49,096 nt of DNA from a virus. Its lineage: Duplodnaviria > Heunggongvirae > Uroviricota > Caudoviricetes. The DNA lies in IMG/VR virus record IMGVR_UViG_2541047773_000006. The stretch is one strand, 5' to 3'. Below are positions 12,001 through 15,000 of the stretch, one piece after another; the first letter of the stretch is position 1, and every line of letters begins with the position of its first letter. Position numbers: made by a program.

Positions 12001-15000
12001 GAGCATTAGTTCAGATGTGAATTGACATTTTCACGGCACAGGATTGAGCTAGCGTGGTTGTCTGCTTTGTGTCAAAAGCAGATATTACCAGATTTAGACA
12101 TCTATTCCCGATAGCCCTGCTCTGATGCTACACTCTGTGCTATTTTCATGACCCCAATAAAAATATTTATGACTATTGCTGATTTTAAACGGCCTAAATT
12201 GGAGCTCCCAAACGGGGCAAACAAACTACTACTGCACTCTTGCTGTGCTCCATGTTCCGGTGAAGTGATGGAGGCGCTTCAGGCCTCGGGAATCGACTAT
12301 ACCATCTTTTTCTACAACCCGAACATTCATCCTCAGAAAGAGTATTTAATTCGTAAGGATGAGAATATTCGCTTTGCTGAACAACACGGCGTGCCATTTA
12401 TTGATGCTGATTACGACACAGACAACTGGTTTGAACGTGCCAAAGGAATGGAATGGGAGCCCGAGAGGGGGATCCGTTGTACCATGTGTTTTGACATGCG
12501 TTTTGAGCGGACAGCGCTGTACGCTGCTGAAAATGGTTTCAGTGTGATCAGCAGTTCACTGGGCATTTCACGCTGGAAAAATATGCAGCAGGTTAACGAC
12601 TGTGGGCGGCGAGCCGTCGCGCATTATCCGGGCATGGTGTACTGGGATTATAACTGGCGCAAGCAGGGCGGCTCGTCCCGCATGATTGAAATCAGCAAGC
12701 GCGAAAAATTCTATCAGCAGGAATATTGTGGCTGTGTGTATTCTCTGCGCGATACCAATCTACACCGCAAATCTCAGGGACGCCCTCTTATCAAAATTGG
12801 TCAACTCCACTACGGTAAAGAAGAGAAGGAGTGATTTTATGGAGCACCTTTCTTATTGATTTCATATTGGCGAGGTAGCGGGAGTTAAGTAAAATTGCTG
12901 CGGGTGCTTGAGGCTATCTGCCTCAGGCATGAACACCAAAAGGCAGATAGAGAAAAGCCCCAGTTAACATTACGCGTCCTGCAAGACGCTTAACATTAAT
13001 CTGAGGCTCAATCTATGCTGAACACATGTAGGTTAGCCTCTTACGTGCCGAAAGGCAAGGAGAAGCAGGCTATGAAGCAGCAAAAGGCGATGTTAATCGC
13101 CCTGATCGTCATCTGTTTAACCGTCATAGTGACGGCACTGGTAACGAGGAAAGACCTCTGCGAGGTACGAATCCGAACCGGGCAGACGGAGGTCGCTGTC
13201 TTCACAGCTTACGAACCTGAGGAGTAAGAGACCGGGCGAGGGAGAAATCCCTCGCCACCTCTGATGTATTATGCATCCTCAACGCACCCACACTTAACCA
13301 GTTTTGGCGAGTTTATTTTATCTGTAAATATTTTTATAAAAATAATGCCCACGCACAGCATAAAACAAAAAGTATTACAGATAAAAAAGGAGCGTAATGT
13401 GCAGATTTGTTGTTTTCCATATTTACTCACCTTAATATGATTGATCTTGATAGGATTGTTATTTCAGTGGTTTTCAAATGAGATATTATGGTGATCTGGT
13501 AGATTTTCATAACATTAAAATTTAATTTGTTTAACCGCTTTTAATAATAAGCGTTGTTTTTATCCCGGCAATCTGTTGTTTGGTTTTTATTCCATTAAGG
13601 TGGGGACTTTACACTGGAGCCAGTTTATTTATACTTCATACGTCAGCCTGAACAACTGGCATCTGCTGCACTGCGCCATCGAGAGATTGAGAAATGGCGC
13701 ATATACAACTGGTCAAACAAACTTCTTCTGGTTTACTTCTCCCGGCGACGCCGGAGAGTTGCGATTTTCTGCATCAAATCAAAATAGGTGAGTGGATACA
13801 CGCAGACTTTAAGCGTGTGCGTAACTACGCATTCCACAAGCGTTTTTTCAAACTCCTGCAACTGGGATTCGATTACTGGACTCCGGTCGGTGGGGCGATC
13901 ACACCTCGCGAACGAGAAATGGTGTTCGGCTTCGTTGATTACCTGTGTGAATCAGTAGGCAGGGAACATACGCCAGCTCTGAGTGATGCCGCGGAACAAT
14001 ATCTGAATACCGTTGCGACACGCAGAACCCGGGATATGGCATTGCTCAAATCATTTGACGCTTTCCGCGAGTGGGTAACCATTCAGGCCGGATTTTACAC
14101 CGAGCATTTTTATCCTGATGGTAGTCGTGGGCGTCGGGCGAAATCCATCGCGTTTGCGAATATGGACGAAACCGAGTTTCAGCAGGTTTATAAATCTGTA
14201 CTGAATGTGCTGTGGAACTGGATTCTGTTCCGTAAATTTTCCTCTCCGGAACAAGTCGAAAATGTGGCCGCGCAGCTACTGGAGTTTGCGTAATGGTGGA
14301 TTTACGTAAAGCGGCGCGGGGCCAGATGTGCCAGGTCAGAATCCCTGGCTACTGCAATCACAATCCCGAAACGTCTGTGCTGGCGCATTACCGACTGGCG
14401 GGAACGTGCGGAACAGCGATAAAGCCACACGATATGCAGGCAGCGATTGCCTGTAGCTCGTGCCACGATTTAATCGACGGGCGGGTAAAAACCAGCGATT
14501 ACACCAAAGAAGAATTACGCCTGATGCATGCAGAAGGTGTTTTTCGCACGCAAGAAATCTGGAGAAAGGAAGGTTATTTATGATTTACCCAACAAATACA
14601 GGCAAAAGCGGGGAACACCTTCGTCTCACCACGCTGGAAAGTGTCTGGATTCAGGGAAAACTGCGCATGTGGGGGCGCTGGTCGTATATTGGCGGCGGTA
14701 AGACGGGGAATATGTTTAACCAGTTGCTGGCGTCAAAAAAATTGACGAAAACAGCCATCAATGAAGCCCTGCGCAGAATGAAAAAAGCGGGAATAGAGAA
14801 AGCTGAGCTGGAAGCGTTTTTGCGAGAGATGATCAACGGCAAGCAAAAGAGCTGGCTGGCGCATTGTACTGATGCAGAGGCACTAAAAATTGATAGTGTT
14901 ATAGGTGAAGTTCTGGCGGATCATCCAGGACTACTAAATGTCCTGAGTCAGCGTTATGTGGGGCGAGGGATGAGTAAGAGAAGGATGGCCGAGTTATTAA

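Follow-up and report, generated by a model that had tools for sequence, protein, structure and literature searches.

A QueH-family gene in a Rac-like prophage

The 49,096-nucleotide viral stretch IMGVR_UViG_2541047773_000006 (its whole length is the window of this study) is 100% identical to a stretch of the Escherichia coli chromosome NZ_OZ040973.1. The stretch represents an entire lambdoid prophage of the Rac-like kind, adjoining ttcA, which bears out the prophage setting first proposed for the gene described here. Here we describe one of its genes, queH, which encodes a member of the QueH family of epoxyqueuosine reductases. Our analyses suggest that queH is a cargo gene (moron) with a promoter of its own, which would give lysogens a cobalamin-independent route from epoxyqueuosine (oQ) to queuosine (Q) in transfer RNA (tRNA). 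We place the probability of this reading at roughly 0.6. The gene and its motifs are as follows.

12169..12834 (+), queH coding sequence, most likely 221 amino acids, with the stop codon TGA at 12832-12834; supported by Pfam, a match in the Protein Data Bank (PDB), the start and name given by the Prokaryotic Genome Annotation Pipeline (PGAP), and an AlphaFold2 model
12241..12255 (+), CCAPC motif (Cys25, Cys26, Pro28 and Cys29), the first set of predicted metal ligands, in invariant columns
12478..12489 (+), CxxC motif (Cys104 and Cys107), in invariant columns and aligned with CerC of Thermotoga maritima QueH
12727..12735 (+), CGC motif (Cys187, Gly188 and Cys189), in invariant columns and aligned with yCGCvfS of T. 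maritima QueH

In the open reading frame (ORF) listing of the window, an uninterrupted frame of 228 amino acids that contains HSCCAPCS spans 12148-12834 (+). The original prediction assigned this frame to QueH from its CCAPCS motif. The frame and the motif (codons at 12241-12258) are confirmed as genuine and lie far beyond chance resemblance; the start, however, is most likely 12169. The hidden Markov model (HMM) search that had been suggested as a check returned a significant full-length match to PF02677 (QueH; E=1.9e-65, 220.6 bits against a cut-off of 23.5), in which protein residues 27-201 align with positions 1-174 of the 175 in the profile. This was the sole Pfam domain returned, and the scan thus gave none of the QueG/YjeS-type domains (cobalamin-binding, ferredoxin). 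The protein also matches PHROG 3217, labelled as of unknown function (E=1.9e-138), and the crystal chains of T. maritima QueH (7lc5, E=5e-22), with every cysteine motif aligned. A phmmer search recovered 4754 relatives among 1.84 billion representative proteins. NCBIfam gave no match to the protein, yet PGAP names it QueH, so the name must derive from another type of evidence.

The QueH (DUF208) family was reportedly defined by Zallot et al. in 2017 and Li et al. in 2021, and the latter are said to have found that its cysteine motifs hold a [4Fe-4S] cluster and an adjacent iron. We aligned the prophage protein with 40 relatives of 35-86% identity (41 sequences in all) and found 16 invariant columns: C25, C26, P28, C29, N52, R62, E99, R103, C104, C107, R111, K137, Q184, C187, G188 and C189 (numbered from the start at 12169). 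Prophage QueH keeps all 16 residues, seven cysteines among them. The AlphaFold2 model built on this alignment has a mean predicted local distance difference test score (pLDDT) of 95.1 and a predicted template modelling score (pTM) of 0.91. Foldseek superimposes it on 7lc5 and 9d86 with E about 1e-14, a target-normalised template modelling score (TM) of 0.92 and a root-mean-square deviation of 1.2-1.3 Å over 179 columns; the next-best matches, TtuA and other PP-loop-type enzymes, stay below a TM of 0.6. HMM, invariant residues and predicted fold together uphold the proposed membership of the QueH family.

T. maritima QueH (7lc5, 7lc7 and 9deu) thus resembles the prophage protein in its full-length HMM match, its fold, its three cysteine motifs, its similar size and its single domain, which includes no cobalamin-binding domain. 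The two differ in sequence (only ~30% identity), in the ~25 additional basic residues at the C-terminus of the prophage protein, and in setting, the E. coli copy being carried by a prophage and not at a chromosomal locus. They also differ at CCAP[C/D], where a cysteine replaces Asp13. In the alignment, the prophage CCAPC falls on C9, C10 and D13 of T. maritima QueH, an enzyme whose C9S and D13N mutants have solved structures. We ruled out that the cysteine at the Asp13 position signals a loss of function, as CCxPC is the majority form, present in 109 of the 113 family representatives that have the N-terminal motif; the T. maritima form CCAPD occurs in three.

Two other starts were considered. 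The upstream ATG at 12148 is ruled out: it is not conserved, the GF47 allele has an in-frame TAA between the equivalents of ATG 12148 and ATG 12169, and the second ATG is where the alignment of all alleles, and of orthologues in other genera, begins (MT[IV]...). The PHROG 3217 profile begins at Met41, a start that is likewise ruled out, since it would delete the invariant CCxPC, and that is best seen as an old mis-annotation. The RefSeq/PGAP start is 12169, and this is most likely the true one.

Prevalence and coexistence with QueG

By megablast, queH is present in 995 of 5426 complete E. coli genomes, with at least 80% query coverage in 985. Carriers include E. coli B, REL606, ATCC 11303, strain C and ATCC 8739, in which the gene lies in a Qin-like prophage. 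All 25 records sampled across the megablast ranking annotate the gene as QueH, and the exact 221-amino-acid protein is publicly named "epoxyqueuosine reductase QueH" on at least 1000 contigs. The gene had therefore already been identified, through its RefSeq name and its Pfam family. We found no paper on a prophage-borne QueH in E. coli, in a search that did not cover the primary QueH papers, where a mention is possible.

Among 50,697 deposited phage genomes, one, HannyBb, has a close copy (locus L003, 4001-4745), annotated "hypothetical protein". Phage databases under-annotate the gene, as this label and that of PHROG 3217 illustrate, while RefSeq bacterial genomes name it QueH.

Searching with K-12 queG (NC_000913.3, 1140 bp), we detected queG in all 5426 genomes, so every carrier of queH has both enzymes. 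The view that prophage queH is a non-orthologous duplicate of an unrelated host gene is upheld by this universal and separate queG. Host QueG has the same predicted reaction, from oQ34-tRNA to Q34-tRNA, and coexists with QueH in the same cell. It differs in its unrelated sequence and fold and in its dependence on cobalamin, which QueH does not share; queG is a core gene, whereas queH is accessory and phage-borne.

Purifying selection on prophage copies

Nei-Gojobori ratios of nonsynonymous to synonymous substitution (dN/dS) among five prophage alleles range from 0.017 to 0.074, at synonymous divergence (dS) of up to 0.46. The reading frame is intact in all 80 copies found on IMG/VR viral contigs. 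These copies represent 18 DNA alleles that encode five proteins, and their variable codons comprise 31 with synonymous changes only and three with conservative replacements. Such a pattern of codon changes shows prophage queH to be under strong purifying selection.

This bears directly on the idea that queH hitch-hiked into its position and has been kept by linkage without any function in E. coli. The candidate for such linkage is the addictive locus immediately downstream:

12863..13227 (+), hok/sok (mokW-hokD) type I toxin-antitoxin locus; Rfam RF01794 (sok) scores 119.6 bits at 12902-13077, and hokD is annotated

This locus directly follows queH in 78 of the 78 IMG/VR contigs with room for it, and the redundancy of queH with a universal queG and its presence in only 18% of E. 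coli genomes would also suit a neutral passenger. However, a neutral gene would have decayed at the divergence seen here, and neither the dN/dS values, nor the scarcity of replacement codons, nor the absence of disrupted copies, nor the retention of every invariant residue fits such decay. Moreover, queH is also found without an adjacent hok/sok, which is its usual but not its universal neighbour. We consider a functionless passenger quite improbable.

Chromosomal relatives and a predicted native promoter

The nearest relatives of prophage QueH, at 80-92% amino acid identity, are from other Enterobacterales, with the best (90-92%) in Enterobacteriaceae. The 90-92% relatives, from Scandinavium, Kluyvera, Enterobacter and a Citrobacter/Klebsiella cluster, lie in non-phage chromosomal contexts. 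In Scandinavium and Enterobacter, queH is found among metabolic and regulatory genes (near a short-chain dehydrogenase/reductase or a DeoR regulator), and the Citrobacter/Klebsiella type adjoins a LysR regulator. Further off, the context is purL-queH-glrK in Erwinia, DUF441 and tmcA in Providencia, and the vicinity of benE in Photorhabdus. From Scandinavium to Photorhabdus, these chromosomal proteins share the length and the start of the prophage protein; they differ from it in their housekeeping or metabolic neighbours, which in the prophage are DUF977 and hok/sok.

When six flanking phage proteins were searched with tblastn against all 80 species loci, phage neighbours were detected only in Escherichia albertii (100% identical). 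The same protein type occurs, by cluster membership, in Shigella and Escherichia marmotae. In a neighbour-joining tree, five E. coli alleles and E. albertii form a single clade that branches among chromosomal genes of the Enterobacteriaceae, with Scandinavium and Kluyvera beside it. The simplest history would be a single capture by a lambdoid phage from an Enterobacteriaceae chromosome, after which the gene spread within the phage pool. Comparisons with Erwinia, Providencia and Photorhabdus show saturated synonymous sites (dS against Scandinavium, Kluyvera and Enterobacter was not computed), and a recent transfer from a sampled donor is unsupported for these three genera.

The proteobacterial QueH clade is unusually conserved as a whole. 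The prophage protein is 76-80% identical to QueH from Alphaproteobacteria and Xanthomonadales, and the loci of this clade (L055-L090) include Pseudomonas, Sphingomonas, Paracoccus, Lysobacter and Stenotrophomonas. Some close matches carry odd organism names, such as a Bacillus subtilis contig (L088, 77%) and a 'Pseudomonas cerasi' entry that represents an Enterobacterales cluster; contaminated or mislabelled assemblies are the probable cause.

Comparison of the upstream regions pointed to a candidate promoter:

12126..12134 (+), predicted extended -10 element TGCTACACT, 43 nt upstream of the ATG, a comparative prediction

Transcription would start near 12141. A TGCTACA[C/A]T-like box of the extended -10 form (TGnTAnnnT) recurs 43-44 nt before the ATG, though upstream DNA cannot be aligned between genera. 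It is present in four of the five prophage-context sequences examined (the window, E. coli B, O157 and E. albertii), and the fifth, GF47, has the degenerate TGCTACACA. The box takes the form TGCTACAAT in Scandinavium and Kluyvera, TGCTACACT, TGCTACCCT or CGCTACAAT in Enterobacter, and TGCTAAAAT in the Citrobacter/Klebsiella type; it also occurs in Symbiopectobacterium and, at -40, in Erwinia. No box was found upstream of queH in Providencia, Photorhabdus or Serratia. The homology of GF47 to the other prophage alleles starts only a few bases upstream of the box. Together with the sharing of the box by chromosomal orthologues, this edge argues that queH brought its own, predicted native promoter, a hallmark of morons.

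No riboswitch (preQ1 or B12) was found in the leader. Rfam gave nothing in 12040-12260 at E<=10 beyond a chance match to a CRISPR repeat, and at E<=1 there was no riboswitch among the matches in 11500-16500. Nor is the leader unusually structured: shuffled sequences fold just as well (z=-0.33).

An alternative concerns lytic growth. Active QueH could be made from the early rightward operon and top up Q on host tRNAs, to the advantage of translating phage genes rich in NAU and NAC codons, any benefit to the lysogen being incidental. Consistent with such a helper of lytic growth, queH is co-oriented with the replication and nin-type genes with no predicted terminator between them, and HannyBb offers at least one example of an inducible or isolated phage with the gene. 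However, the retention of a native chromosomal-type promoter box suggests expression independent of the phage programme, and even where a prophage is defective, as with the Qin-like element in E. coli B, queH persists intact and under purifying selection. The single close copy among the deposited phage genomes also counts against a lytic role, as does the lack of any documented difference in decoding between oQ and Q in the literature covered. In addition, tRNA turnover is slow relative to the lytic cycle. We regard the lytic role as unlikely, while ranking it first among the alternatives.

A cargo slot in the nin-equivalent region

The early part of the prophage runs intR, xisR, recET, kilR, sieB, racR, ydaS/T, ydaU, ydaV (replication), DUF1627, DUF977 and queH. 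It continues with hokD/sok, DUF1367, YbcO, a DUF1133/Q-type antiterminator, two tRNA genes and the lysis genes, and ends distally with trkG, the head and tail genes and cdtABC. Pfam searches of the neighbours of queH agree with the annotation and define the replication module as YdaU/DUF1376, a DnaC-like YdaV, DUF1627 and DUF977. The position of queH between this module and DUF1367, YbcO and the Q-type antiterminator corresponds to the nin region, as the original prediction had it.

11553..11984 (+), DUF977 gene (Pfam PF06163), the constant upstream neighbour of queH in lambdoid prophages

Rac-like prophages have this gene ahead of queH, as do the Qin-like prophage of E. coli B, O157 prophages and phage HannyBb; among the IMG/VR contigs with room for it, 71 of 75 do. 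What lies beside queH varies. In the O157:H7 prophage, an NgoMIV-type restriction enzyme and a cytosine methyltransferase (locus L006, 5872-7882) replace hok/sok; in the GF47 prophage, a DUF1971 gene (locus L005, 6290-6628) does so. In E. coli B, a truncated methyltransferase lies immediately ahead of queH (locus L004, 4735-4920), and K-12 Qin carries relB-relE-ydfV-flxA at the corresponding place (locus L095, 5347-6738) and lacks queH. The slot is an accessory-gene (cargo) hot spot. Like other lambdoid morons, queH is a self-contained and dispensable gene with its own predicted promoter, set between phage modules in a slot whose occupancy varies among related prophages. It differs from them in that no terminator was found at queH, and in that its expression in the lysogen and its benefit to the host are inferred.

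Phages use enzymes of the queuosine pathway for DNA modification, and some of the cargo found in the slot is of the defence type (a restriction-modification pair and toxin-antitoxin modules). Both points would suit a change of substrate, in which QueH would act on 7-deazaguanine in phage DNA, or on a small-molecule or protein adduct of a deazaguanine-based defence, and would serve DNA modification or counter-defence. We searched for partners of such a system. No DpdA/Tgt-like transglycosylase, QueC/D/E or FolE is annotated in the 49 kb prophage, in which the hypothetical ORFs were not all rescanned, and none of the PADLOC defence models matched QueH (0 families at E<=0.01). On these grounds, the DNA-modification or defence role was rejected. 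The close identity (90-92%) to chromosomal housekeeping QueH, with the invariant residues unchanged, also leaves little room for a new specificity, and we hold a new substrate to be very improbable, the least probable of the alternatives.

Elsewhere in the prophage, trkG (a potassium transporter gene, 17716-19173) follows the lysis genes, as it does in K-12 Rac, and G+C content falls to 0.32 at its start. Genes for cytolethal distending toxin, cdtA, cdtB and cdtC (44304-46404, +; RefSeq annotation with converted coordinates), lie at the far end of the prophage. They are followed by an alpha/beta hydrolase gene (46474-47958, -) and an ompT-family protease gene (48143-49096, -), the first base of which is the end of the window.

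Two tRNA genes downstream of queH

15479-15554, tRNA-Thr (anticodon UGU), identical (100%) to host thrU
15558-15632, tRNA-Gly (anticodon UCC), equal to host glyT save for one compensated acceptor-stem pair (C6-G to U6-A)

The pair begins 2645 bp downstream of queH, which bears out the earlier figure of about 2.6 kb. Neither tRNA is a substrate for queuosine, as was already noted, since the anticodons are UGU and UCC and not GUN. In the host, thrU and glyT flank tyrU, the gene of a queuosine-substrate tRNA, in the thrU-tyrU-glyT-thrT-tufB operon; the phage genes are 3 nt apart, and their flanks are unrelated to the host locus. Of the 65 IMG/VR contigs with room for it, only 19 have the tRNA pair less than 5 kb downstream of queH, and the flanking DNA examined in the QueH prophages of E. 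coli B and O157 (~5 kb) is free of tRNA genes. The non-GUN anticodons, the low count among contigs and the absence near queH in B and O157 lead us to reject a functional link between queH and the tRNA genes.

Proposed role of prophage QueH

QueA makes oQ at position 34 (oQ34) of tRNA-Asp, tRNA-Asn, tRNA-His and tRNA-Tyr. The final step from oQ to Q by QueG requires cobalamin, according to a passage in PMC4646009 that cites Frey et al. 1988, and QueH performs the same reaction independently of cobalamin (PMC5615194; PMC11906303; PMC9508795). E. coli has no synthesis of the corrin ring and only salvages cobinamide or B12 (PMC6461909). Given this inability and the cobalamin requirement of QueG, prophage QueH probably lets a lysogen finish Q without B12. 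Pairs of B12-dependent and B12-independent enzymes are common within single genomes (PMC6461909), and Staphylococcus aureus retains both QueG and QueH, which are differently expressed (PMC13443448). Stopping at oQ has consequences. According to fitness data cited in PMC9508795, insertions in queG resemble those in tgt and queA in their phenotypes under Ni/Co stress, and this likeness to tgt implies that oQ is not equivalent to Q.

We propose that the prophage gene encodes a functional QueH-type epoxyqueuosine reductase, a small iron-sulfur enzyme that would act on oQ34 of the four tRNAs named above and reduce its epoxide, yielding Q with no need for cobalamin. A lambdoid phage would have captured queH once, from the chromosome of a relative in the Enterobacteriaceae and together with its extended -10 promoter, and the gene would now be a cargo gene in the accessory slot behind the DUF977 gene. 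A lysogen could then complete Q when B12 is unavailable, much as MetE backs up MetH, and the phage may gain through the fitness of its host. The analogy lies in the duplication of a B12-dependent host function in a B12-independent form (PMC6461909). Family membership, intact catalytic residues, fold, chromosomal origin, purifying selection, prevalence and coexistence with queG were established above; we infer that the enzyme and the promoter are active, that the lysogen expresses queH, and that scarcity of B12 is what selects for it.

Several observations weigh against this proposal. No clear Shine-Dalgarno sequence precedes 12169, a generic -35/-10 scan did not list the TGCTACACT box, which makes the promoter a comparative prediction only, and the terminator scan found none after queH. 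The gene is oriented with rightward early transcription and would thus also be transcribed in lytic growth. Any benefit must be conditional, as 82% of E. coli genomes are without queH. Finally, the searchable literature yielded no experiment with this protein or any other prophage QueH.

Implications

A broader and rather unlikely extension is that queuosine status is a phage-conferred and strain-variable trait of E. coli. Lysogens, and common laboratory strains with the prophage gene (B/REL606, C and ATCC 8739), would reach full Q without B12, and K-12 would stall at oQ. The phage would gain through host fitness, in settings that are B12-poor or in which btuB-deficient cells have been selected by colicins or phages, or through translation of its own genes. 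If true, QueH would be the first tRNA-modification enzyme shown to be a lysogenic-conversion factor in E. coli.

The presence of queH is unlikely to surprise a specialist, and the value of the finding lies in a cheap prediction on strain differences in Q and oQ. About one-fifth of E. coli genomes, including the widely used B, C and Crooks lineages and not K-12, can probably complete queuosine by a second route that does not depend on B12. If the enzyme is active, the Q versus oQ state in B12-free media would differ among standard laboratory strains, and queG knockouts would be silent in queH-positive backgrounds. A temperate phage would then supply its host with a housekeeping function related to translation.

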